NCBI GenBank assembly: GCA_964016885.1
Contig: OZ024740.1
Coordinates: 401,574,001 to 401,638,000 of the forward strand
Direction of reading: 5' to 3'
Length of the DNA: 64,000 nucleotides
Source of the DNA: Eledone cirrhosa
Taxonomy: Eukaryota
Shown one piece after another: positions 3,602-61,304 of the stretch. A model generated the notes under the pieces. It worked only from the letters and a program-made list of their open reading frames with translations, did not search any database and was not told the origin of the DNA. How positions within the stretch are numbered: position 1 is the first letter of the stretch; every line of letters begins with the position of its first letter. A program made the position numbers and the translations under genes.

Positions 3602-3691
<90 letters not shown>

Positions 3692-3780
3692 TATGTGTAC
3701 ATACATATGTATACAGACGTACAGTAGTATGTATTTTTTTTATCGTTTTCGGTACGTTCAATCGACTGACAGGAAGGTAT

Positions 3781-3824
3781 ACAGTGCTGATGACAGCTAA
3801 TAAGCTAGAAACTAGTTCATCGTT
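3781..3824 (+). ncRNA. Probable minimal hammerhead motif
   Basis: CTGATGA(3787)-c-agct-aata-agct-a-GAAAC-ta-GTT; stem I pairing weak. Confidence 0.45.
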
Positions 3825-5379
3825 CCTTTGTCAGTGTTGAAAAAAAGGGCAACGATGGTTGCCGAACACTGTACGGCTTAATTCGGACTGTTTGTTTACA
3901 AACAAACCGAACATTATAATAAATGTTCGGTAAGCCCATACGTACATATATATATATGTGTGTGCATGTATGTATGTATATACATACTACTGTACGTCTG
4001 TATACATATATGTATGTACGTATACATACTTATATTTAAGTATCAGCCGTACTAAGAGTGAGAAATTAAATTTCATTTTTTCCATTTATATATATATATA
4101 TATATATATAATATTCATATATATAAACATATATATATTTATGTATGCATATATATGCGGGTGTATGTGTGTATTTGTAGATGTCTATTTATATTTATCA
4201 TCTGGTATCGCTGTCTAATGTCATAATTTATATAGACTGGACGTCTCTAAATCCCGTTTTTCTTGTTTTAGTTATATCTTTGTATGTATCTTCATTTCTG
4301 AATATTATCCATTACCAAGAGAAAAAGTACCATACACATTTTAAACACTACAAAACACCAACTTCACAACCTACACTATCAACTAATATTTAGTCGCTGT
4401 AGTTGACAAAAAGAAAGTTTTCAAAATTCATAACAGAGTATTCTGTAAATGGATTTATACGTAGTCTTGCCTGGCTATGTTTTAAAATGTTGAATATTTT
4501 TATACTTGCTCAAAAGTCATGATTTTCAAGACAAATTTTCTATGGGAAAGTAGGTGCCCTATGACTCTAGTAGGCTCCCGTCGGTTGGACGATATCAGTA
4601 ATTCAAACGATCATCTTTATCACATACTGTGTCACGATGATTCTATCTGAGAATGATATTAGTGTTCATGTGTCTGTTTGATATTGAGACAACAGTGCTA
4701 TAGTTAAATGAGATGGCAGTTCATTTAATCATGTATGTGTAATAGCCGACTCGTTGTGCATGTATTTACAAACGCACACGCACACACGCATAAACACATG
4801 CGCGCGCGCACACACACACACACATACTGACACTCTCGCTCACACACATATATTTACGTATACACCATGTATATACTTAAGTGTTTATTCGATATAACTA
4901 TGTTGCATTTCTGATAATACTGTAAGTGTGTCTCTGTGTATGAATGCGTAAATGTTCCTTGTATAGGAAACGATGCTTAAATAAAGGCAATAATATATAA
5001 TGTCAGAACTTCACGCATATGTACACATGCGCAAACGTATACTACATAGAATTATCAATATCACGGCCACCACTAACACTGACACCCCCGACATAAACAC
5101 CCCATGTCCACCCGGACCTTACATAGTGTTGTTTCACTACAATGTCAGTTTACCTCTATCACACTTGCCGTTGTTTTTAGCTCGCATGTAATCCGACGTT
5201 CTTTAGCTGGGCTGGTGAAACATTAGATAACTTCAACAGAATGTTCAGATTAAACGTGAAAAAGTGTGAAGAAATACTGAGGGCTACTGCGGAACGAATA
5301 TGTTAACCTAGCTGGAATCCTATGAATGTTAACCGGAAGAGCAGCTGTAAATAAGAAATTACACTTGAATAAATTCAGT

Positions 5380-12053: not shown

Positions 12054-12062
<9 letters not shown>

Positions 12063-12601
12063 TAAAAAAATAATGAATAAAACAAAGAAACAGTTCCTTA
12101 TATTAAACAAAAAAAGTTCATTATTTAACGATCGTTTCTAGGACATATATGTGTTAGAATTGGCATGCATATTCAAAAGATCTATGTACAAAATTATACA
12201 AACTATCAAGGAGAATATACATACCATCACATATACAATCTGTCTTCAGAAATAATTATTTCTGAAGACAGCATGTATATGTGATGGTATATGTGATGGT
12301 ATCATGTAATCTCCTTGATAGTTTGTATAATTTTGTACATAGATCTTTTGAATATGCATGCCAATTCTAACACATATATGTCCTAGAAACGATCGTTAAA
12401 TAATGAACTTTTTTTGTTTAATATAAGGAACTGTTTCTTTGTTTTATTCATTATTTTTTTAATATTTTATCTTGACTCTGTATTCCGTTTATCTTTCACC
12501 GAAAGTGATTTTTGAATGCATCTCTTCTTTCCATGATATCCGGATTACATTGAGTTCTTCATACGGATTGGACGCTACCGTAAACTTTTGGTAGATTTAT
12601 C

Positions 12602-14841: not shown

Positions 14842-15222
14842 GTAGAAGGTCGGAGGCCATGCTTTGCAGCATAGAGTTACGCCCCCTTATGATCTGAGTT
14901 CAAATCCCGCCGAGGTTAACTTTGCTTTTCATCCTTACGGGGTCGATAAAATAAAGTACCAGTAATGAACTGGGATAATTACTGACCTTGTGCCAAAAGT
15001 ATAAAGAATTATTAAGGACGACTTGGGCAGTGGATTGTCAGTATCAGTAGAATGTCGGACATGCTTCGCGGCATGAGTTCAAATCCCACCGAGGTTAGCT
15101 TTTCCTGACATCCTGTCGGGGTTGTGATGAAATAAAGTAGCAGTAACCAACTGGGGTCGAGTTAATCGACTCTCCCCTCCCCTAAAATTGTTGGTATTGT
15201 GCCTATAGTAGAAATCAATATT
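14842..15222 (+). mobile_element. Two tandem SINE copies (14842-15012 and 15025-15222)
   Basis: Two B-boxes (gagttcaaatccc), each followed by the core and tail. Confidence 0.85.
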
Positions 15223-16334
15223 AGGGACGACTAAATAAACTGCATCACTCACCGAATTTTGAAAACAGTATAATTCAAATTCAGATATAATTAATTTATC
15301 TCTAACATCATCATATAATCTACAGTAACAAAAAATATTAGTGTTGTAGCAAAAAACATTGTTTACATGTACGGGGATTTCTAAATTCTCTCGTTTGCTT
15401 TCTTATCCAGCATGTTGTGTTTTCTTGAATACTATATTGTTATAGGTTTTCAGTATTTATTGTTATGTGTGTATTATGTAGATGGTGTGGTGTACCGATT
15501 AACATTTGTGTATTCAATACAACAAACTGGAAACCTTAACGCATTCCTCAAGTAATAAACATTCATTCATTCAAATCTAACTATGAGAAATATGTTGTTT
15601 AAGTAAGTGTAAACATATTTAATGTAGGGAGCATTAAAATACTAACTAGAAAGAATTATGCGCTGGCGTAAAAAAAAAAAAACATTAGCCAATGAGTAAT
15701 ATTATTTTAATATTTTCGCCATAATATGTCTCACTTCCCTGTGGTAATGGTAATTAGAAATATTAACGCTCTAACTTCAGTATAATTATTCATACATACA
15801 CTCACACACACACATATATATATATATGTACATGAGTGTCGGTGAGTGTGCGTGTTATTGTGTCTGTGGATATGGGTGTATCTATGTATATGCAAGTATT
15901 TATGTATGAATGTGTTTATATCCATTGATCATCATAGAACTCATGTATGCAAATAAGCAACCATTTTTATAAAAATCCATTGAATTAATTTATATTGATG
16001 AAAGAAAATTACTAAATGAGATATTGTGATTGCAGTATTGATATTATTCCTTAATTTGCACCCACATGAAAATAATTTCCCTTTAAGCAAATTTTGCATA
16101 TCGAATGAGAAATTTAAATACCACACATATGTATTTAAAACTCAGTTAACCTACATTTTCTAAAGTATTTTACACTTCTGGTGATCATTATTAACACACC
16201 AACACGCACTCACATGCACACATAAACATAGATGTATACACACATACAATCACACACACACACACACATATATCGATATATATCAATATATATCGATATA
16301 TATATGTGTGTGTGTGTGTATATATATGGGTATA

Positions 16335-16364
<30 letters not shown>

Positions 16365-16365
<1 letters not shown>

Positions 16366-18330
16366 TGGAATAAATGCTCTGAAATAGCGATATATATGTG
16401 AATATAGACATAGAATATTCGAAAATATTCTGTATGTTTATAATAAACATTTTGAAGACCTAATCGCTATAGAATAGAATACGTCACGTATTACAATTAG
16501 ATTCTCGATAAAAGCAAGGGAAGTAATCTACGCGTTTCATTCTCGTTAGAAATCATCAGGACTACATATCCAGTGCTTTTATCGAGAATGGCACAGCTAG
16601 AGACTTATAGAATACTTAGCTGTGTACAGGAACTGGTTTGAAAGAGCGGTTGCCGGTCCGGCAGAAATTAAAAATTGGAATAAATGCTCTGAAATAGCGA
16701 TATATATGTGAATATAGACATAGAATATTCGAAAATATTCTGTATGTTTATAATAAACATTTTGAAGACCTAATCGCTATAGAATAGAATACGTCACGTA
16801 TTACAATTAGATTCTCGATAAAAGCAAGGGAAGTAATCTACGCGTTTCATTCTCGTTAGAAATCATCAGGACTACATATCCAGTGCTTTTATCGAGAATG
16901 GCACAGCTAGAGACTTATAGAATACTTAGCTGTGTACAGGAACTGGTTTGAAAGAGCGGTTGCCGGTCCGGCAGAAATTAAAAATTGGAATAAATGCTCT
17001 GAAATAGCGATATATATGTGAATATAGACATAGAATATTCGAAAATATTCTGTATGTTTATAATAAACATTTTGAAGACCTAATCGCTATAGAATAGAAT
17101 ACGTCACGTATTACAATTAGATTCTCGATAAAAGCAAGGGAAGTAATCTACGCGTTTCATTCTCGTTAGAAATCATCAGGACTACATATCCAGTGCTTTT
17201 ATCGAGAATGGCACAGCTAGAGACTTATAGAATACTTAGCTGTGTACAGGAACTGGTTTGAAAGAGCGGTTGCCGGTCCGGCAGAAATTAAAAATTGGAA
17301 TAAATGCTCTGAAATAGCGATATATATGTGAATATAGACATAGAATATTCGAAAATATTCTGTATGTTTATAATAAACATTTTGAAGACCTAATCGCTAT
17401 AGAATAGAATACGTCACGTATTACAATTAGATTCTCGATAAAAGCAAGGGAAGTAATCTACGCGTTTCATTCTCGTTAGAAATCATCAGGACTACATATC
17501 CAGTGCTTTTATCGAGAATGGCACAGCTAGAGACTTATAGAATACTTAGCTGTGTACAGGAACTGGTTTGAAAGAGCGGTTGCCGGTCCGGCAGAAATTA
17601 AAAATTGGAATAAATGCTCTGAAATAGCGATATATATGTGAATATAGACATAGAATATTCGAAAATATTCTGTATGTTTATAATAAACATTTTGAAGACC
17701 TAATCGCTATAGAATAGAATACGTCACGTATTACAATTAGATTCTCGATAAAAGCAAGGGAAGTAATCTACGCGTTTCATTCTCGTTAGAAATCATCAGG
17801 ACTACATATCCAGTGCTTTTATCGAGAATGGCACAGCTAGAGACTTATAGAATACTTAGCTGTGTACAGGAACTGGTTTGAAAGAGCGGTTGCCGGTCCG
17901 GCAGAAATTAAAAATTGGAATAAATGCTCTGAAATAGCGATATATATGTGAATATAGACATAGAATATTCGAAAATATTCTGTATGTTTATAATAAACAT
18001 TTTGAAGACCTAATCGCTATAGAATAGAATACGTCACGTATTACAATTAGATTCTCGATTTTTAATTTCTGCCGGACCGGCAACCGCTCTTTCAAACCAG
18101 TTCCTGTACACAGCTAAGTATTCTATAAGTCTCTAGCTGTGCCATTCTCGATAAAAGCACTGGATATGTAGTCCTGATGATTTCTAACGAGAATGAAACG
18201 CGTAGATTACTTCCCTTGCTTTTATCGAGAATCTAATTGTAATACGTGACGTATTCTATTCTATAGCGATTAGGTCTTCAAAATGTTTATTATAAACATA
18301 CAGAATATTTTCGAATATTCTATGTCTATA

Positions 18331-18335
<5 letters not shown>
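16365..18335 (-). mobile_element. Retrozyme-like array: about 5.5 x 310 bp units plus an inverted arm of about 277 bp, in (TA)n
   Basis: Units begin at 16365, 16675, 16985, 17295, 17605 and 17915 and appear identical; 18058-18335 is an inverted copy; one hammerhead per unit. Confidence 0.92.
16523..16565 (-). ncRNA. Minimal type I hammerhead (repeats at 16833, 17143, 17453, 17763 on minus; 18168-18210 on plus)
   Basis: gtagtc-CTGATGA-t-ttct-aacg-agaa-t-GAAAC-gc-GTA-gattac; enclosed by the 16 bp helix attctcgataaaagca/tgcttttatcgagaat. Confidence 0.9.
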
Positions 18336-18388
<53 letters not shown>

Positions 18389-18928
18389 TACATATGCATT
18401 TATATACCTATATATATATATATATACATATGCTTATATATATATATCAATATCGATATATCGATAAAACGATTTTCAATTAATGTTGAGCCTCTCAGCA
18501 TGCATGTATCTATGTCAGCTAATATGTATATGTATACGTACATACATTCATACATACACACGCACGCACACACATAATATATATATATATATATACACCG
18601 ACATATGTTACTTTCGTCAATTCGTTCAGTATTTGCCTTTTTTCCATTCAATATATATCCGCTTAATTTCTACTTCTGTATCATATTAATTTTACACAAG
18701 CTTGTTTATTTAAAATACATAGTTCAACATTAAACTTTAAAATGTAACACGTATATGTTTTTAGAAAGGAATCCAAAGAAAACTGTACATACTTAATTAC
18801 TATTTGAACTAACTGACGCTCCCTAATGAGTTATGAATAATTAATAGGCAAAAAAATAACATAAATATATTTTCCTTAATGAATAACTGAATTTCAACCA
18901 CATGTTACATCGATATGATCTCAAATGG

Positions 18929-19256: not shown

Positions 19257-19981
19257 ATGTGTGTGTGTGTAGAAGCACATACGCACACATATATATATAT
19301 TTCTATATATATATATATATATTCATAAATTCGACATCTGAAATGTTGAAGAATATTTAGTATGAGTAGCATCCCAGAAGCTGCATAACAGATGTTTACG
19401 TTAGTTTCAAGGAGTGGACTAAAACGAATGCTTCTAGATCCCATGGGATAGTGAAGCAAACAACACATCCTGTCTTTTCGCATCTAACTATGTGTTGACA
19501 ACAATATTTTGTACTTACGTGTAGTAGTTTTATGATATATTGCTTTGATTTGTCGGTATAATATGTTATTTTTTTTATAATATAAGCTGATAACATTAAT
19601 TCATGTGAGGCTTGTATGTATGAGAAACGGAGTTATCTTTCTTGTCTGCATACCTTATTTTCAGGATTGTGTTATAGAAGGATATTTACTATTGTACTTA
19701 TTAAGTGGTAAATTCAATTATTACTCTATAGTTAAATTAGTCTAGATCATTCGATATTGACGACTTACCTCGGATAAAATGACGGGTGTTATATATATAC
19801 AGGGCTAGGTGACTTGGTGAAGTGTCTACTAAAATATTAGCATTGGCTGCGTGGAGGCTACAATCAAAGTAAATAATTTCCGCTGGTTCAGCTGAAATTA
19901 CTCTGAATAACAAATATGAATATCGTGAGACTTATTTCGATAGAGAGTGATGTGTAGAAAATGAGCTGAGTTCAAAATATT

Positions 19982-20360
19982 ATAACTGTTTCTACTTTTT
20001 GGCACAAGGCCAGCAAATAAGCCAGTGCATTACTGGTACTTTATTTTATCGACCCCGTAAGGATGAAAGGCAAATTAAACTTCGGCGGCATTTGAATTCA
20101 GAATGGAAAGGGCCGTAACTCCATACGTCAAAGCATGTTGTCCGACCCTCTACCGGTACTGCCAAATATTATAATTGTTTCTACTTTCGGCACAAGGCCA
20201 GCAATTATCCAGAGCATTACTCGTACTTTTTTTTATTGACCCCGTAAGGATGAAAGGCAAAGTTAACCTCGGCGGGATTTGAACTCAGAACACAAAGGGA
20301 CGTAACTATGCTGGAAAGCATGGCGTCCGACCCTCTACCGATACTGCCAATACACCGCCA
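19982..20360 (-). mobile_element. Two tandem SINE copies (19982-20165 and 20170-20360)
   Basis: Tail, core gaccccgtaaggatgaaaggc, B-box and A-box each present twice on the minus strand. Confidence 0.88.
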
Positions 20361-21877: not shown

Positions 21878-21910
<33 letters not shown>

Positions 21911-21916
<6 letters not shown>

Positions 21917-23549
21917 CAAATAACGAAACGAAATTAAATTTCGTTTCGTTTGTAACTCACTTTTGTATGACTGACGCTTAAACAATTAAGTTAGAAGTGT
22001 ACATCCACATATGTATACTGAAATACTAGTATGCATATAAATACACACACGTATACATATGTAGATGTACCGAGTTTTTCACTGGACACTTTACTGTGAG
22101 TGTTCAGCTAGTCTGTATGTAAACACACAGACAAACCGGTTTTTAGAGTCATACTGGTTTTCGAGGAAACACCTTTCCTCTATTCTCCAGAGGGCCAGAC
22201 AGGAATATTGGACTAGTTTCGATGTTGTTACATCTCATCAGCAATATATACCCATCCTCCGGCCCCTCTAGAGAATCGTAAAAGCACATATCGTTATATG
22301 CTTTTTCTATGAAAATTAGTAGTGGGCAGACTAATTTGCATAGAGCGTGAGTACGTACCGGTTCAGCGGAAGCGATAAAAACAAATAACGAAACGAAATT
22401 AAATTTCGTTTCGTTTGTAACTCACTTTTGTATGACTGACGCTTAAACAATTAAGTTAGAAGTGTACATCCACATATGTATACTGAAATACTAGTATGCA
22501 TATAAATACACACACGTATATATATGTAGATGTACCGAGTTTTTCACTGGACACTTTACTGTGAGTGTTCAGCTAGTCTGTATGTAAACACACAGACAAA
22601 CCGGTTTTTAGAGTCATACTGGTTTTCGAGGAAACACCTTTCCTCTATTCTCCAGAGGGCCAGACAGGAATATTGGACTAGTTTCGATGTTGTTACATCT
22701 CATCAGCAATATATACCCATCCTCCGGCCCCTCTAGAGAATCGTAAAAGCACATATCGTTATATGCTTTTTCTATGAAAATTAGTAGTGGGCAGACTAAT
22801 TTGCATAGAGCGTGAGTACGTACCGGTTCAGCGGAAGCGATAAAAACAAATAACGAAACGAAATTAAATTTCGCCCTCTGGAGAATAGAGGAAAGGTGTT
22901 TCCTCGAAAACCAGTATGACTCTAAAAACCGGTTTGTCTGTGTGTTTACATACAGACTAGCTGAACACTCACAGTAAAGTGTCCAGTGAAAAACTCGGTA
23001 CATCTACATATGTATACGTGTGTGTATTTATATGCATACTAGTATTTCAGTATACATATGTGGATGTACACTTCTAACTTAATTGTTTAAGCGTCAGTCA
23101 TACAAAAGTGAGTTACAAACGAAACGAAATTTAATTTCGTTTCGTTATTTGTTTTTATCGCTTCCACTGAACCGGTACGTACTCACGCTCTATGCAAATT
23201 AGTCTGCCCACTACTAATTTTCATAGAAAAAGCATATAACGATATGTGCTTTTACGATACTCTAGAGGGGCCGGAGGATGGGTATATATTGCTGATGAGA
23301 TGTAACAACATCGAAACTAGTCCAATATTCCTGTCTGGCCCTCTGGAGAATAGAGGAAAGGTGTTTCCTCGAAAACCAGTATGACTCTAAAAACCGGTTT
23401 GTCTGTGTGTTTACATACAGACTAGCTGAACACTCACAGTAAAGTGTCCAGTGAAAAACTCGGTACATCTACATATGTATACGTGTGTGTATTTATATGC
23501 ATACTAGTATTTCAGTATACATATGTGGATGTACACTTCTAACTTAATT

Positions 23550-23552
<3 letters not shown>
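21911..23552. mobile_element. Retrozyme-like element: about 2.1 x 465 bp units joined head-to-head to about 1.5 inverted units, in (TA)n
   Basis: Units start at 21911, 22376 and 22841; inversion at 22873; ORF track repeats at 22065/22530 (+) and 23262 (-) confirm the period. Confidence 0.92.
22205..22247 (-). ncRNA. Minimal type I hammerhead (also 22670-22712 on minus; 23286-23328 on plus)
   Basis: atattg-CTGATGA-gatgt-aaca-acatc-GAAAC-ta-GTC-caatat; all stems pair, canonical GUC site. Confidence 0.93.
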
Positions 23553-23631
<79 letters not shown>

Positions 23632-28975: not shown

Positions 28976-30056
28976 GTTATTGTTATTCCTTGAATCTCAG
29001 TCATTGATGTTGGTTAACTGGAAAGTCCGTTGGATTGAATATCAAGCCACTACCTGCAGCCTCAGATATTCAGGACGTATCGGAGGGTTCTTGCCGTTCC
29101 AAGCAAGCATGCCTTTTGAAGCGTTCCAAACAGCATGAAGGGGCCGATTTTCTTTAACCATCCCTGGAAACCTTTGGAGATAGTCCCCAGTGCGCCTATG
29201 ACAATCGGGATCACTTTGACTTCATGGCAGTTCCAAATCCTTTTCACCTCCCACTTTAGGTCCTGGTATCGGTTAATTTTCTCCCTCTCCTTCTCTTGCA
29301 CTCTCGTGTCGAACGGGCAGGCCACATCCACAATCAGGCACGATCTTTTTTCTTTGTCCACAACCACCAGGTCAGGTCTATTGTGTTCCAGTTTTTTGTC
29401 CGTCTGTATCCTAAAATCCCACAGCACCTTCACCTGACTGTTCTCCATCACCGCCTCTGGCCTATTCTCATACCATTTCTCAGAATGTGGTAGATTGTTT
29501 ACTTTGCACAGGTGCCAGTGGATCACCCTGCCCATCACATCGTGTCTCCAGCCCTTATAGTGGGTCTGGGCTAGGTGTTTACACTCGGACACAATGTGAG
29601 CCACAGTCTCCTCTCTCTCTCCACAGATCCTGCACAGTGGGCTAGCCTCCTCCTTGTAGATATGGTGCTTCAACCACTTCGTTTTGAGGGCCTGCTCCTG
29701 CGCAGCCATTAGCATTCCTTCTGTAGCCTTTTTGAGGTCTCCTCTTCTCAACCAGTTCCATGTCTGTGGATCTCTAAATTCAGTTTTCTCAAAGAAGGTA
29801 CTATGAAGGGATTTTCCCTTAAGGCTGCTCTTCCTCCTTGATGTTATTTCCTCCTTGGATATCCCCTGGCCTACTGTCCCCTCCTTCAGTACAGCTCTGA
29901 GCATTGGCTCCTTACTATAGGTCACGTATTTGTATAGGTTGTTTTTCTCCATCTGAACACAGTCCTCTATGCTGATAAGACCTCTTCCACCCTCAGATCT
30001 CCTTAGGTAGAGTCTATCGACATCACTCCTCTTGTGGAACATGTTGTAGATAGTCA

Positions 30057-30057
<1 letters not shown>
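28976..30057 (-). mobile_element. R4/Dong-type LINE copy A, 5'-truncated, open 331 aa C-terminal ORF
   Basis: CCHC knuckle CRICGEREETVAHIVSEC, RHD motif, RLE motif PDLVVVD...D, KY-like motif; (ATT)n on both sides. Confidence 0.93.
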
Positions 30058-30112
<55 letters not shown>

Positions 30113-30113
<1 letters not shown>

Positions 30114-31804
30114 GTTGTTATTACTCTTTGAGTCACAGTCATTGATGTTAGTTAACTGGAAAGTTTGTTGAAATGAATATCAAGCCACTACCTGCAGCCT
30201 CAGATATTCAGGACGTATCGGAGGGTTCTTGCTGTTCCCAGCAAGCATGCCTTTTGAAGCGTTCCAAAAAGCGTGAAGGGGCCAATTTTCTTTAACCATC
30301 CCTGGAAACTTTTTGAGATAGTCCCTATTGCGCCTATGACAATCGGGATCACTTTGACTTCATGGCAGTTCCAAATCCTTTTTACCTCCCACTTTAAGTC
30401 CTGGTATCGGTCAATTTTCTCCCTCCCCTTCTCTTGCACTCTCGTGTCGAATGGACAGGCCACATCCACAATCAGGCACGATCTTTTTTCTTTGTCCACA
30501 ACCACCAGGTCAGGTCTATTGTGTTCTAGTTTCTTGTCCGTCTGTATCCTAAAATCCCACAGCACCTTCACCTGATCGTTTTCTACCACCGCCTCTGGCT
30601 TATGCTCATACCACTTCTCAGAATGTGGTAAATTGTTTACTTTGCATAGGTGCCAGTGGATCACCCTGCCCATCACATCATGTCTCCAGCCCTTATAGTG
30701 AGTCTGGGCTAGGTGTTTACACTCGGATACAATGTGAGCCACAGTCTCCTCTCTCTCTCCACAGATCCTGCACAGTGGGCTAGCCTCCTCCTTGTAAATA
30801 TGGTGTTTCAACCACTACGTTTTGAGGGCCTGCTCCTGCGCAGCCATTAACATTCCTTCTGTAGCCTTTTTAAGGTCTCCTCTTTTCAACCAGTTCCATG
30901 TCTGTGGATCTCTAAATTCAGTTTTCTCAAAGAAGGTACTATGAAGGGATTTTTCCTGAAGGCTGCTCTTTCTCCTTGATGTTATTTCCTCCTTGGACAT
31001 CCCCTGGCCTATTGTCCCCTCCTTCAGTGCAGTTCTGAGCATTGGCTCCTTACTATCAGTCACGTATTTGTGTAGGTTGTTTTTCTCCATCTGAACACAG
31101 TCCTCTTTGCTGATAAGACCTCTTCCACCCTCAGATCTCCTTAAGTAGAGTCTATCGACATCACTCCTCTTGTGGAACATGTTGTAGATAGTCAATAGCT
31201 TCCTAGTCTTCCTATCCATTTCTTTCTGTTCAGCAACATTCCATCTCAGAATTCCCGCTCTGTACCTAATAGACACAGCTCGGGAATTTACTGCACTTAT
31301 GGCATTCCTACTGTTCAGATGTGACTTACTCTCCGAATGTATTCGGTTCTTATCAATTCCTTCATTTTTTTGTTCTTGATGTCATCAGCCTCCAGAACGC
31401 CCAAATACTTGTATCCTTCTTCAGAGTCAATTTCCTTTATCATCTCACCCGTTGGTACCTAGATTCAGTTACTTCTGCTCAACTTACCCCTCTTCATCAC
31501 AATGACTCCACACTTACTAATACCAAATTGCATACATATATCATTGGTGAAAATACGGACAGTGTCAACAAGCACATCCAACTCCTTCTCACTCTTCCTG
31601 AAGAGCTTAAGATCGTCCATGAGAGGAGGTGATTGATGGTAAGTCCTCCCTTTCCCAACCTGTATCCTGCTGTCACTTTTTGCAGTACACTGGTCAGGGG
31701 CATCAGGGCAAGGAGAAACAACAGAGGGGACAGACTATCTCCCTGGAAGATACCTCTCTTGATCTTCACGCTTCCCAAGGATTCTCCAGTTGATGTTAAC
31801 TCTG

Positions 31805-38419: not shown

Positions 38420-38900
38420 TATGCTTCGTTTATAACAAATTATAGATATACTGCTATATATATTTCGGTGACAGCCATCATTGGCTGTGACCTCTTCAGG
38501 CAGTCCGAATTAGTGTGGGAAGGACAGGTTCACATGTTGTTGAAGTGTGTTTTACTCCGTCAATCCATCGATATGTCCTGCTCCTGGTAGTGTTGTTATT
38601 TCTCTTAGGAACTGGAATCATGATTCCAGTTCCTAACACACTTCAACAACATGAGTACCTGTCTTTTCCACACTAATTCGGACTGCCTGAAGAGATCACA
38701 GCCAATGATAGCTGTCACCGAAATATATATAGCAGTATATTTATAATTTGTAATAAACGAAGCCAAATTTTACATATTTGACTTAATTATTTTACATTAC
38801 TCCGGAGTAAACTAACCAACCTGCGTACTTCGTCGAGTGCTCCAATCTGCATACTGAGGTGTCGGTAAACAACCAACATATACTAAAAGAAAAAAAAAAA
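38420..38900. mobile_element. Palindromic element with two divergent intact hammerheads (38450-38504 minus, 38682-38736 plus)
   Basis: actgc-CTGAAGA-..acagc/gctgt..-GAAA-tatat-ATA-gcagt; perfect 32 bp palindrome at 38605-38636. Confidence 0.82.
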
Positions 38901-46295: not shown

Positions 46296-49227
46296 GAGAA
46301 ATGAAAACAGAGAAGGATATAGAGAGAAAAAAAAATGTAGAAAAAGGAGGATAGAAAGAGAATAGAAAAGGATAGAGGAGAAATGACGTAAGAGAAAAAA
46401 TGATATGAACAATGAATGAATAAATGTTAATACATGAATAAATATAAATAAATAAATAAATAAATAAATGAATAACTAAACAAATTATATCGAGTATGAT
46501 ACAAAATGATAGAAAATATGAAATATGAAAATATGAAAATATGAAAATAAATAAGTAAAATGTGCGAAGAAATTTAAACATAAAGATTATTGAAAGTGGT
46601 TAAAATATAGAGAGATGCGAAGGTATAAATATGATAATGTTAAATATATTTATGTGTATTGGTTATTTTAATAAATTAATTACATAATTAATTAATTATT
46701 TGATTAATTAGTTGTATGTTATATTAGAAGTGAAAATGATATGATAAGATAAAATACTAGGGATGAAATAAATTTAGGGAGAGAAATATAAAATATGAAT
46801 GTAAATATAAGAGGTTTTGATGTTGGTTCATTGATAGAGGGTGATAATTATAACAATAATGATGATGTGATATTATAATAGTTCTAAGTGGTACAATTTG
46901 GGTTATGGAATAGATAAGATGAATTAAGCTGGTCTAAAGTTCTCAAATTTGGTCGCCATTTTATGCCTACAGTAAATAGTTCTTTCAATTTTACTGTTAA
47001 GTAGCATTTTGTTGTACTTTAAAATTTAGAAAAGCTCCATATTACAAAGACCACAGTGGGACATACCAATTCGATAGGCCGTTGTTGTTGATAGCTTCGT
47101 TCAACTGTTTTTATATTCAATGTTTGCATCTCTAAGTTGCCAGATTTTTTTGGCGAGATTTATTGTATTTATGAGCTTCCTGTTAATCATAGTGTGTCTG
47201 TGGACACACCACATTTTCTTAAATTCTCCAGCTGTAGATCCTATGTAGTGCCATGCTAAGCTGCCTGAATTTATAGTACATAGGTATACTATAATAGACT
47301 CTAGGCATCCATTTTGTAATGGGCATTTGTCAGGTAGATGACAATTACATTTAGATGCTTTTCTATGTGCCGGTTCTTCAATATGGTTTTGTAAATTGTT
47401 ATGTATGGGCTGAGAATTGGGTTTGTTGATGTATTGTGGTGATGTGTTCTGACGTGAGTTTGGTTGTGATGATGTTATATGTTTATGTTTTGTATTTGTG
47501 TTATGGTACTTATTTGCGGGCTACTTGCATTATACATTCTTTTATAGTTAATTTTATGTATGTGCGATTCTATGTTGTTGGTAGTTTGATAGTTTTTCTA
47601 TTAAAGATTTTATGAATTTTAGGGAAGTGTTTGTCAACTAATTTGAAGAAAGTATAAGGTAGTTTTGTTTTTATAGAGGAGTTAAACACTTGATTGAACC
47701 ATAAGTACTTTCTATCTCTACATCTTCTATAGTTATTAGTGGTCTTTCTATTAGTATTCTGTTCAATTAATTCACGTGCTTGTTGCCAATTTCTATGTTT
47801 AGTCCTAGATTTGTTGCTTCTATAGGTGTGGATAGTGTTATTTCTATTAAGTGTGTTGTTATTTTTTGTATTCGGTATGTATTTGAGTCTCTCTTTATGG
47901 CCTGCCTTAAGTAAAGCTATGTTGTAGTAGTTAGCATGTTCATTAAAAATCTCTAGATTAGAATATAGGTGTGAGATTCTAAGGGATATACTACGTGCTA
48001 TGGAATTAATTATGGGTCGAGGGTGTTTAGAGTTATAATTATTGTAAACTAAATGTTCATTATTTTTATGGAAGGGTTCTATTAGACCTGTGTTTAGGTT
48101 AAGCGATACATCTAAGAAGTTAGCTTTTTTAGAATTGAGTTCAAAAGTGATGTTAAGGCCTAATTTATTAAAGAATTTTCTAATCTTTTCCCGTAATCTT
48201 TCTAAGTCCTGATTATTTAGGTTTCTAGCAAAAAGCAATTTATCGTCTCTATAAATTCCTCCTTGTAGGTTATCAAATTCCTTATGTAAGATGTGTGCTA
48301 TATAAATTCCGACAATGTCTGTAATTTGGGCTGAATCATTTGATCCCATAGTTATATCGAAGTTATTCTGTCTATTTTTTCTTTCCCAGTAACTATTGTC
48401 GAATTTAATGATTGTTCTTCTAGCAGCTAGCATTATTTCAATTTCCTCTGGTGATAGGTCAGAGTTTTTTTGTGCAAAGGATAGTGCCTTATTTAGGGTT
48501 ACTGGGGAAATAGAGTAGGGGAATAGTAGTCATTAATGTCAAACTGTATGAAGTCGGAAGATTCTCTATTGTCTAATTTATTAAACCAATCTATTGCTTC
48601 ATTAGTGTTATCCCAGAGTTTGATTATTAGTTTTTCTTTAATTTGTGGTATTATCCTATCTAGTATAAACTTGCTAATTCTGCCTATATCTGATTTTGAT
48701 GGATATATTAATCTAATAGTAGGGTCAGTTTTGAAGTTACATTTATGATCCTTCAGATTAAAAGTGGGTTTACAAGGCGTTAGAGGTTCGGTTCTATCAG
48801 ATATTTTAGTTTTTTTTTACTATGTTAAGACCTTCCTTGTTAATGCTATTGAGTGTAGACTCTGTAGTTTTTTTGTATTTTTCATGTAATTCCCGGCGCA
48901 TAAAGTTGTATGTATTAAGGCTCATGGTATATACATTTGATGTTTTGTCTGCCTTCACTATTATACCGTTTGTGTTACGTAATTCTTTTAGTAGCGCATT
49001 GATGTTATTTTGCAGTTTGTTATGATACATTCGTTTTTTTTAAATTTAGTTTCTTTTATCATGTTCATGAGGTCAAGTTCAAAGGCATGAAGTTGTGGGT
49101 TGCCCGATGAATTTTTGCAGGATCTAAACCCATATTTTTCATTGGTAGACTCACTATTTCTATCATTATTATTATGTCCTTTATTGTAATGATATGCTTT
49201 CCATCGTAATGATATGCTTTTGTTATC

Positions 49228-50030: not shown

Positions 50031-50620
<590 letters not shown>

Positions 50621-57970: not shown

Positions 57971-58034
<64 letters not shown>

Positions 58035-58035
<1 letters not shown>

Positions 58036-58158
58036 TTTATACCGGGTTCAATCGTTGGTAACCCCAGTAAGGTACCCAATACAGATTACTTGAACAGTCA
58101 GCTTCCTGATGATTTCTCACGAATGAAAGAGTTGTAGTCCTGTAGAAGCTTTTATATA
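58035..58158. mobile_element. Family D copy with hammerhead at 58101-58149 (+)
   Basis: gcttc-CTGATGA-t-ttc-tcac-gaa-t-GAAA-gagttgtagtcct-GTA-gaagc, preceded by an inverted 3' piece. Confidence 0.75.
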
Positions 58159-58159
58159 T

Positions 58160-58201
<42 letters not shown>

Positions 58202-59189: not shown

Positions 59190-59560
59190 AGAGAAAATTG
59201 AGGTTGGTAATGGCACATGGAATATATAAGAGACAGAATACTTTTTTGTGAAAAAACATAATTTTATAAGGTAAGGAAATAATAAAGGGTATAAAAAATG
59301 ACCGGTTTCGATGGGTCTGCAAAAGCCATCTTTTCAAATGTTGATTAATATTAAGAAAAATTAATAATACGAAGAGTTCTCTTCGTATTATTAATTTTTC
59401 TTAATATTAATCAACATTTGAAAAGATGGCTTTTGCAGACCCATCGAAACCGGTCATTTTTTATACCCTTTATTATTTCCTTACCTTATAAAATTATGTT
59501 TTTTCACAAAAAAGTATTCTGTCTCTTATATATTCCATGTGCCATTACCAACCTCAATTT

Positions 59561-59565
<5 letters not shown>
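59190..59565. mobile_element. Perfect palindrome of about 376 bp carrying a core-mutated hammerhead
   Basis: Centre gaagag-tt-ctcttc (59377); ttgaaaa-gatgg...ccatc-GAAAC-cg-GTC in both arms. Confidence 0.85.
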
Positions 59566-59880: not shown

Positions 59881-60486
59881 TACATATATATATATATAAT
59901 ATGTGGGTTGTATGTGAGAGAGAGTACTTTCAAACATACGTACTAGCATTCATATATACATACACATATACATATAATACATATATACAAACAAACATAT
60001 ACTCACAATCAGATATTCATATGGCGGCATATAGAAAATATCAGAATGACACTGAAAGTGATGTTGAGGTGGAGACAGGCTAAGTCAAATGTCAGAATCC
60101 AGAGACTTAAGCAATGCTTTAGCTGATGCTGCATATGGCATCTTGATATATGGATAGTAGTTAGGTAAATTTCCTCTGCTTTGGCCGTAATTCTCAGACG
60201 TTTCAAACGACATTGACTCGAAGCCTTCAAACGGAAGTTCGGCAGACATTTGGCTTATAGCCGAAGGACTATTTTTCACATTTAATAACATCCTATTTTG
60301 TAATATATTAGTTTATGTATGAATGCATATGTGTATAGGAATATATAAGCATACGTGCAGACATACATATACGCCATCATTTCCTCACACACATATATTG
60401 TGTGTCAAACACACACAAACACCACCCACTCACATCCACACCCATATATATGTATGTAGATGTGTATATATATTTATATATATATA

Positions 60487-60592
<106 letters not shown>

Positions 60593-60625
60593 TATTTATA
60601 TGTATATATATATATATATATATAT

Positions 60626-60800
60626 GTTATTACTGGTTCAATCGGGGGTAACCACAATAAGTAAGTTACTCAATACATAGCAGAGTAGAAATGTTTTAAT
60701 ATAGAAAAGCTTCAACAGGACTATAACTGTTTCATTCGTGAGAAATAATCAGGAAGCCTGATGATTTCTCACGAATGAAACAGTTCTAGCCCTGTATAAG

Positions 60801-60884
<84 letters not shown>

Positions 60885-61081
60885 TATATATATATATATA
60901 TATAAGCTTCTACAGGGCTAGAACTATTTCATTCGTGAGCAATCATCAGGCTTCCTGATTATTTCTCACCATTGAAACAGTTATAGTCCTGTAGAAGCTT
61001 TTCTCTATTAAAACATTTCTACTCTGCTATGTATTGAGTAACTTACTTACTGTGGTTACCCCCGATTGAACCAGTAATAAC
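60626..61081. mobile_element. Nested double palindrome of family D with four hammerhead motifs, centred on (TA)n
   Basis: 60626-60805 is inverted relative to 60903-61081; each half is itself a palindrome centred on gaagc/gcttc. Confidence 0.88.
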
Positions 61082-61118
61082 TTATATATATATGTATATA
61101 TTTATATATATATATATA

Positions 61119-61178
<60 letters not shown>

Positions 61179-61200
61179 TATATATATGTATGTATATATA

Positions 61201-61304
<104 letters not shown>

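Follow-up and report, generated by a model that had tools for sequence, protein, structure and literature searches.

How does a 310-bp hammerhead-bearing repeat come to lie in several identical copies, most in tandem and one inverted, between two (TA)n tracts? The question is raised by a locus in the window, by which we mean the whole 64,000-nt stretch of the Eledone cirrhosa assembly that was analysed. The locus lies on contig OZ024740.1 (C1) of a 3.0-Gb genome in which many further copies occur at 97–100% identity, and we approached its origin through the locus itself, its family and the variants that the family carries.

A two-armed array of a hammerhead-bearing unit

The long arm of the window locus contains no mismatches among its units, and the inverted piece matches them exactly over 277 nt, or over 286 nt allowing one mismatch (Table 1). 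Both sides of the array are flanked by (TA)n and, by ribozyme polarity, the RNA 3' ends of both arms face outward into these flanks. RNA positions are numbered along the ribozyme-carrying strand of the unit. The initial annotation had described about 5.5 identical units read through five predicted cleavage sites; both observations stand, and a sixth site is read through in the short arm. It had also proposed that the array inverts by 2-nt microhomology inside a 16-bp helix. The overlap is present and the inner end of the long arm does fall within that helix, but the arms are not one continuous run, and the helix is only mildly favoured in the family (37 of 228 inner ends versus 23.5 expected, p 0.004).

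Table 1. Positions of features of the hammerhead array in the window
Feature	Position	Strand	Remarks
Left (TA)n-rich target flank	16268–16365	.	Likely primer of the long arm at site B through its 3' end, overlapping that arm by 2 nt (AT)
Arm B, 5.47 identical 310-bp units	16364–18059	RNA strand minus	Family start site B (RNA 2) forms the 3' end, RNA 167 the inner end
35-nt 'tail' (RNA 278–312)	16364–16398	-	Ends arm B, missing in arm A; Penelope-type tail between the two start sites, as described in parts of PMC8557442 and PMC11167929
Stem-loop region (RNA 206–301), in every unit	16375–16470	-	75–78% common to older sister family
Type I hammerhead motif, first unit	16523–16565	-	Recurs each 310 bp up to 17763–17805
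CTGATGA, long arm	16559, 16869, 17179, 17489, 17799	-	
Predicted cleavage after GUA, long arm	16529, 16839, 17149, 17459, 17769	-	
Head-to-head arm junction	18058–18059	.	2-nt microhomology (AT)
Arm A, 0.89 unit (RNA 1–277)	18058–18334	RNA strand plus	Family start site A forms the 3' end; allowing one mismatch, the match extends into the TA flank as far as 18343
Hammerhead domain, arm A	18144–18232	+	16-bp closing helix 18144–18159/18217–18232
Hammerhead helix I, arm A	18168–18173/18205–18210	+	
Core CTGATGA, arm A	18174–18180	+	
Predicted cleavage, arm A	between 18204 and 18205	+	Palindromic ACGCGT replaces helix III
Right (TA)n-rich target flank	18334–18447	.	Likely primer of arm A through its 3' end

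The 16-bp helix is perfect (RNA 87–102 pairs with RNA 160–175) and encloses a type I hammerhead, a call that rests on the core motif and the helices read from the sequence. The layout comprises helix I (RNA 111–116/148–153), the core CUGAUGA (RNA 117–123), a helix II of 4 bp over a U-U pair followed by GAAA, and predicted cleavage after A147, with the palindrome ACGCGU instead of helix III; the core CUGAUGA...GAAA...GUA and the 6-bp helix I are present in all six covered units. Rfam gave 0 matches at gathering score within the window. Counting against cleavage are the U-U mismatch at the base of helix II and the inability of helix III to form in the monomer, although in a co-folding prediction two hammerhead motifs pair via the ACGCGU palindrome. 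The unit folds with a z score of -4.98 as a linear molecule and of -4.6 as a circle (59% paired), and in neither case were any of 100 shuffles as good. None of 33 locus-fixed substitutions in the family fell at an invariant hammerhead core base, where about 1.4 were expected, a shortfall that is not significant alone; two fell at the variable N7 position.

By these sequence features the window element is a member of the non-LTR retrozymes, with predicted self-cleavage. Its size (310 bp), tandem arrangement and GC content (34.5%) agree with those of the class (about 150–450 bp and under 50% GC), as do the presence of at least two consecutive type I hammerhead units, a highly self-paired monomer and, from the junction counts given below, dispersal in many copies. 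No open reading frame (ORF) of 120 aa or more overlaps 16364–18334, and we found neither an LTR nor a primer-binding site, the copies being bounded directly by (TA)n. Plant LTR retrozymes, with a type III hammerhead in two LTRs and a 4-bp target duplication, are a poor match to an element of type I topology that has no LTR; a target duplication is unreadable in (TA)n. The insertions do have Penelope-type anatomy, with an inverted 5'-truncated arm and a 30–40 bp tail at one end, but the element has no ORF for a reverse transcriptase (RT) with a GIY-YIG endonuclease, as an autonomous Penelope-like element (PLE) would. It behaves like a PLE passenger, yet is no PLE.

Start sites, arms and junctions across the family

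Across the genome, site B ends were found at 1,006 (RNA 2) and 297 (RNA 7) exact junctions and site A ends at 1,178 (RNA 277–286), whereas reversed controls gave 0 for either site. From the B counts, the family comprises at least 1,300 insertions. We drew 140 anchored loci from the junction listings, following genome order. Of these, 118 were anchored on a B end, 20 on A ends that lacked an exact B partner, and 2 were taken because of one suspected exception. Another 20 loci were fetched by similarity to the window unit and kept out of all rates, because their single-unit T5 and C85 alleles reflect selection by similarity. L-numbers denote fetched loci elsewhere in the assembly. Two rows were dropped (L100, the same insertion as L070, and L236, whose anchor was unmatched), L254 and L255 were treated apart, and we also left out 4 loci incomplete at the edge of the fetched sequence and, from variant counts, 2 loci with more than two pieces.

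Among the 118 complete multi-arm anchored loci, 116 had one A end and one B end (49 of 49 and 67 of 69 by subset), 2 combined B with some other end, and none was A/A or B/B. Coordinates alone gave the same pairing within the first 222 Mb of C1 for all 54 pairs that face outward, a sample that overlaps the anchored set, and all 15 two-armed loci of the similarity-picked set were A+B as well. The sole B/B locus, L255, which stands outside the count of 118, shares its junction and right arm with L254, 7 kb off, and is probably a rearranged duplicate. Sites A and B lie 35 nt apart, and these 35 nt are the 'tail' of Penelope-like elements. With regard to the initial annotation, the array indeed starts directly from (TA)n, but at fixed family start site B and not at an arbitrary point within the unit, and its supposed end at an internal TATATA is instead start site A. 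Given the near-universal A+B pairing in complete multi-arm copies, we read the right end as a second site of priming and not as a stop. Which of the two arms is the longer varies.

Arm A was the longer arm in 51 of 114 loci; an excess of more than one unit was seen for arm A in 32 and for arm B in 47. The two lengths correlate weakly (rho 0.28, p 0.002). Most arms (208 of 233) exceed one unit, and the longest arrays reach 27 units when complete and 31 or more when truncated. Single-arm copies of both kinds occur, with A-only copies at 6 of 59 sampled loci. Five similarity-picked cases had raised the suspicion that arm A stops preferentially at site B; the anchored set gave no support to this, with 8 of 249 inner ends within 7 nt of a start site and 12 expected. 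Inner junctions contained inserts in 30 of 114 cases, and 81% of the 84 insert-free junctions had microhomology of 1 nt or more, compared with 47% for random joins.

An older sister family (L112:2440–2864, L151–L175), 75–78% identical over RNA 206–312, has the same two start points and the 35-nt tail, together with a different hammerhead and mostly short arms. Its site A is followed by no TA run, so that the start is likely set by position and not by microhomology. To judge from its sequence, the stem-loop at RNA 206–301 is likely the element recognised by the reverse transcriptase.

The window contains other repeats of related build. A second, unrelated hammerhead array at 21910–23554 is built from a 465-bp unit; its two arms, of 2.07 and 1.47 units, meet head to head within (TA)n. 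Its tail measures 69 nt, its helix III is a palindromic ACTAGT, and its copies show 3 mismatches. Short elements embedded in (TA)n, at 58033–58160, 60626–60795 and 60905–61080 of the window and in L136, L140:8510–8710 and L147:4130–4330, carry a hammerhead core very like that of the 310-bp unit (CTGATGATTTC...GAATGAAA) and make up a related small family. Hammerhead-like motifs also occur in small or inverted elements beside TA tracts, at window 3690–3945 and 38420–38760 and at L141:9068 and 9579; the L141 pair, 511 bp apart, is perhaps a third array family. At window 29062–31381, between (TTA)n tracts, pieces of the C-terminus of a non-LTR retrotransposon (weak zf-RVT match), with what we take to be a restriction-like endonuclease motif, are arranged both in tandem and inverted. 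Near-perfect palindromes with little or no spacer (59190–59565, 50031–50620, 60444–61263 and about 12055–12470) are also present, and the genome seems prone to fold-back duplications. Finally, a short tRNA-like repeat, presumably of SINE type, occurs in pairs at 14845–15160 and 19975–20350, one pair being tandem with a period of 187.

A circular monomer as the probable template

Variation within the family is strongly partitioned by locus. Minor alleles within loci amounted to 257 in 355,646 bases (0.072%; 134 anchored loci), compared with a between-locus difference of 0.95%; the 118 fully covered loci carried 43 haplotypes, and only 633 of 6,903 locus pairs were identical. Private fixed variants filled both arms in 14 of 16 cases, and a fixed arm-to-arm difference was found at 1 of 77 testable loci. 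Substitutions within arrays were fixed or, in 139 cases, singletons; multi-copy minor variants numbered only 16. The window locus itself carries private variants, T5 and C85, in all six copies and both arms, and these are fixed in no other sampled locus. As about 1.4 variants would be expected in 2 kb at the mean rate, the absence of variants among its units is commonplace, and 26 of 59 sampled loci were likewise variant-free; the very recent origin that the initial annotation read from unit identity applies to the family as a whole and is not special to the window copy. Because haplotypes are fixed across arrays and both arms, we infer that the formation of a new array always goes through a single monomer.

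The predicted cleavage site was crossed 1,181 times in the family with 0 scars. Of 209 minor alleles in all, 0 fell at RNA 144–147 and 6 at RNA 148–151, and only 2 of 228 inner ends fell at RNA 146–150. Scar-free crossings and the scarcity of inner ends there suggest that cleaved linear RNA is a poor template and that a closed circle is the simplest one. These sequence patterns favour repeated copying of one monomer circle. Of the rolling-circle reverse transcript first proposed for the locus, the circular hammerhead RNA is thus retained as the best reading, with family-wide support, while the single run is replaced by two separately primed cDNAs.

We consider it likely that the window locus, a non-LTR retrozyme copy and one of at least 1,300 family insertions in (TA)n, has arms that share a haplotype and start 35 nt apart because a trans-acting Penelope-type RT made repeated copies of a single monomeric RNA circle from both cut (TA)n ends. 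Under this model, arrays would be transcribed and their hammerheads would cleave as dimers via the ACGCGU palindrome, in the manner described for metazoan hammerheads in part of PMC4209133. Monomers would then be ligated to 310-nt circles, by analogy with material in PMC7229834, and a GIY-YIG endonuclease would cut both (TA)n strands, by analogy with material in PMC11167929. Synthesis would be primed at site B on one DNA end and at site A on the other, consistent with the observed pattern of ends. Each cDNA, as read in the sequence, would pass the ligation point several times without a scar, and the two cDNAs would join head to head through the 0–5 nt microhomologies or short inserts found at family junctions. 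With a single monomer per round, rare variants, perhaps including A-to-I edits, would become fixed in all units of a new array, which is the pattern observed.

Open frames with RT and GIY-YIG domains are present in the genome. GIY-YIG frames are many (150 scored of 10,595 candidates), and L131 and L134 combine an RT with a C-terminal GIY-YIG domain, preceded in L131 by a CxxxxCxxC motif. No terminal repeat or autonomous element sharing the 310-bp unit sequence was found among 40 GIY-YIG loci; unit matches at these loci, from the same 150 scored of 10,595 candidates, are neighbouring small elements and not pLTRs. L131:2800–8200 is an approximately 5-kb, partially tandem Penelope-type element; its terminal repeat contains a degenerate hammerhead-like motif, and the element has an open stretch of 938 codons. 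In the window, broken frames on the minus strand at 47101–48529 look by their motifs like a Penelope-type RT with a cysteine-rich GIY-YIG region after it; Pfam gave no match at 47570–48529. The CxxxxCxxC motif is described as a feature of the Neptune and Nematis clades linked to (TA)n targeting (PMC8557442, in part).

The locus-fixed substitutions point to a possible modification of the template. With direction taken from the majority allele on the RNA strand, 12 of 33 fixed changes were A>G, in comparison with 10 of 139 singletons (Fisher p 6e-5), and A>G exceeded T>C (4) with a strand bias of p 0.015. Nine of the 12 A>G sites are paired at a probability of 0.96 or more, the mean for all A being 0.60. 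Selection for changes tolerated as G-U pairs accounts for the pairing, but it should favour C>T too and so fits poorly with C>T being the commonest singleton (28) but only 2 of the fixed changes. ADAR has a 5'-neighbour preference, for which the 5' neighbours of the fixed A>G sites (5 U, 3 A, 3 C and 1 G) are too few to test. A-to-I editing of the putative RNA circle is a plausible cause of the fixed A>G changes and, if it is the cause, RNA edits become heritable DNA changes in this family. In L072, the first four arm B units carry A at RNA 113 (UAG context, helix I) and the other nine copies, including arm A, carry G, a switch that may stem from editing as synthesis proceeded, from a template that was mixed or from conversion afterwards. 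A more tentative proposal, which we regard as possible but somewhat doubtful as a whole, is that a Penelope-type enzyme dimer sits on one 310-nt RNA circle with a subunit at each start site and makes two rolling-circle cDNAs from both (TA)n break ends, and that the helices of the circle undergo A-to-I editing which is then copied into genomic DNA, in L072 perhaps between laps four and five. If true, the dimer on a circle would account together for the Penelope-like tail, the inverted arms and the tandem arrays.

Not every locus is what copying of a pure monomer circle would give, L072 with its change of allele within an arm being one exception. In L081, L109 and L183, variants lie in register in the first unit or units only, of both arms, which suggests that both arms begin in the same unit; in L183, where three sites are linked, the opening two units of both arms have one common haplotype and the units after them another. 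A multimer template fits these three loci better, as does a joint switch of template or conversion between the arms. In the first case, the template would be a long uncleaved multimer transcript of the source array, primed internally at A and B, with a dispensable hammerhead and later homogenisation of arrays. Unprocessed RNA is favoured in part of PMC11167929, and scar-free read-through would be equally expected from such a transcript, but the 93,215-bp zone covered by both arms has only 9 shared variant columns (4 loci, one of them an indel artefact) versus 83 unshared. Moreover, homogenisation was not caught under way, the minor variants being the singletons and few multi-copy cases noted above, yet 43 haplotypes are fixed throughout. 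We therefore regard a multimer template as unlikely in general. If the RT jumped from end to end on a linear self-cleaved monomer, much as in DRT2-type repeat synthesis, no covalent circle would be needed, and a single haplotype per locus would be explained equally well. Template jumps, however, usually leave bases added or lost, and run-off ends; no base was added or lost between RNA 147 and 148 at any of the 1,181 crossings and inner ends were not enriched there, which makes jumping a very unlikely route.

A DNA circle also yields one haplotype and seamless repeats. Amplification at the DNA level, whether through 310-bp extrachromosomal DNA circles or by satellite expansion following a short insertion (a satellite-birth route is discussed in part of bioRxiv 10.64898/2026.07.22.740005), could further account for block duplications in a few long arrays (L063, L085). 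Repeated minor variants in the long arrays L062, L063 and L085 do suggest that part of the length of some arrays over 20 units may be later expansion. As an origin for the family, amplification of DNA is nevertheless highly improbable given a fixed polarity in which every RNA 3' end faces outward, a Penelope tail delimited by two fixed starts, insertions dispersed in (TA)n, private variants that fill both inverted arms and the strand-biased A>G excess. The window locus alone, with its short inverted arm, 2-nt overlap and junction in a strong helix, would fit a single cDNA that folds back or switches template at the helix, copies itself and anneals to the other target end at TATATA, an idea akin to the self-priming in part of PMC3846280. 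A fold-back copy cannot outgrow its template, so the 32 of 114 loci in which arm A is longer by more than one unit, together with the 47 in which arm B is, contradict copying of one arm from the other at most loci; the existence of both kinds of single-arm copy and a sister family that ends at A without a TA run add to making fold-back a remote prospect. That unit number and identity are assembly artefacts is scarcely credible. No contig bridging the window junction was among those listed from short-read runs X1, X2, X6 and X5, but other arrays in the assembly retain single-unit variants and locus-specific junctions, and in run X1 the summed unit depth was, roughly, about 100,000 or more versus 3.7 on the flanks. 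Single contigs of the unit, 340 nt long (X3, X4, X5, X10), were rejected as evidence of RNA circles, as a tandem repeat yields such contigs in assemblies of this kind; no RNA run was among the 24 runs listed.

The window locus is ordinary within its family, and its value lies in what the family shows about mechanism: a young family of more than 1,300 near-identical insertions is a natural experiment. The one-A-one-B rule, the single-monomer bottleneck and the scar-free laps make the question of circular versus linear template directly testable with 310-nt RNA. An RT that writes multimers of a small circle into (TA)n is also of interest for gene-insertion work.

Relation to known elements

The non-LTR retrozyme class, its link to PLEs and the circle model are already in print. 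Animal non-LTR retrozymes, as described in parts of PMC7229834 and bioRxiv 10.64898/2026.07.22.740005, resemble the window family in their tandem 150–450 bp units, low GC, type I hammerhead in each unit, strong self-pairing, lack of LTR, primer site or ORF, and co-occurrence with PLEs; axolotl HHR_Amex2 shares the short palindromic helix III and the U-U pair at the base of helix II. In these accounts they are tandem arrays, whereas in the window family the two-armed form is constant, starts A and B are fixed and haplotypes are specific to the locus. Retrozyme circles and cleavage were demonstrated for coral, mussel and axolotl (PMC7229834, in part), and among frog retrozyme dimers only 1 of 9 was cleaved in vitro (bioRxiv 10.64898/2026.07.22.740005, in part).

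Endonuclease-containing PLEs (PMC8557442 and PMC3846280, in part) have head-to-head inverted arms, an inverted pLTR with a one-sided tail of 30–40 bp, and a bias for (TA)n; the origin of tandem, inverted, tailed insertions is called undefined in PMC8557442. In the anole Poseidon element PAc (PMC11167929, in part), the tail is bounded by two internal start sites that lie, as here, downstream of the hammerhead. The anole protein, a predicted dimer, cuts and extends both strands, and in vitro hammerhead cleavage was unnecessary, with unprocessed linear RNA judged the main substrate. In contrast to PLEs, the window family has no ORF and both of its arms are multimers of one small unit. A tail is optional in PLEs as these sources describe them, whereas all but two complete two-armed copies of the window family have one start of each kind.

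Circle-templated, 'more-than-unit' retrotranscription has been a tentative proposal since 2014 (PMC4209133, Discussion, in part). This model predicts head-to-tail arrays copied by a PLE enzyme from ligated, hammerhead-cleaved RNA, as we envisage; to it the window family adds genomic tests, namely a haplotype bottleneck, no scars and no run-off ends. Our literature search, which covered main texts without supplements and few subscription papers, found no statement of the one-start-of-each rule and, within the same scope, no per-locus haplotype fixation or editing write-back for such elements.

LINE-1 twin priming starts two cDNAs on a single RNA, one from each target end, and their joining by microhomology creates an inversion; the second primer uses a variable site beside the stop of the first cDNA. 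Classic twin priming of this type was considered for the window family and rejected, because in the family both starts are fixed and it is the inner ends that are scattered.
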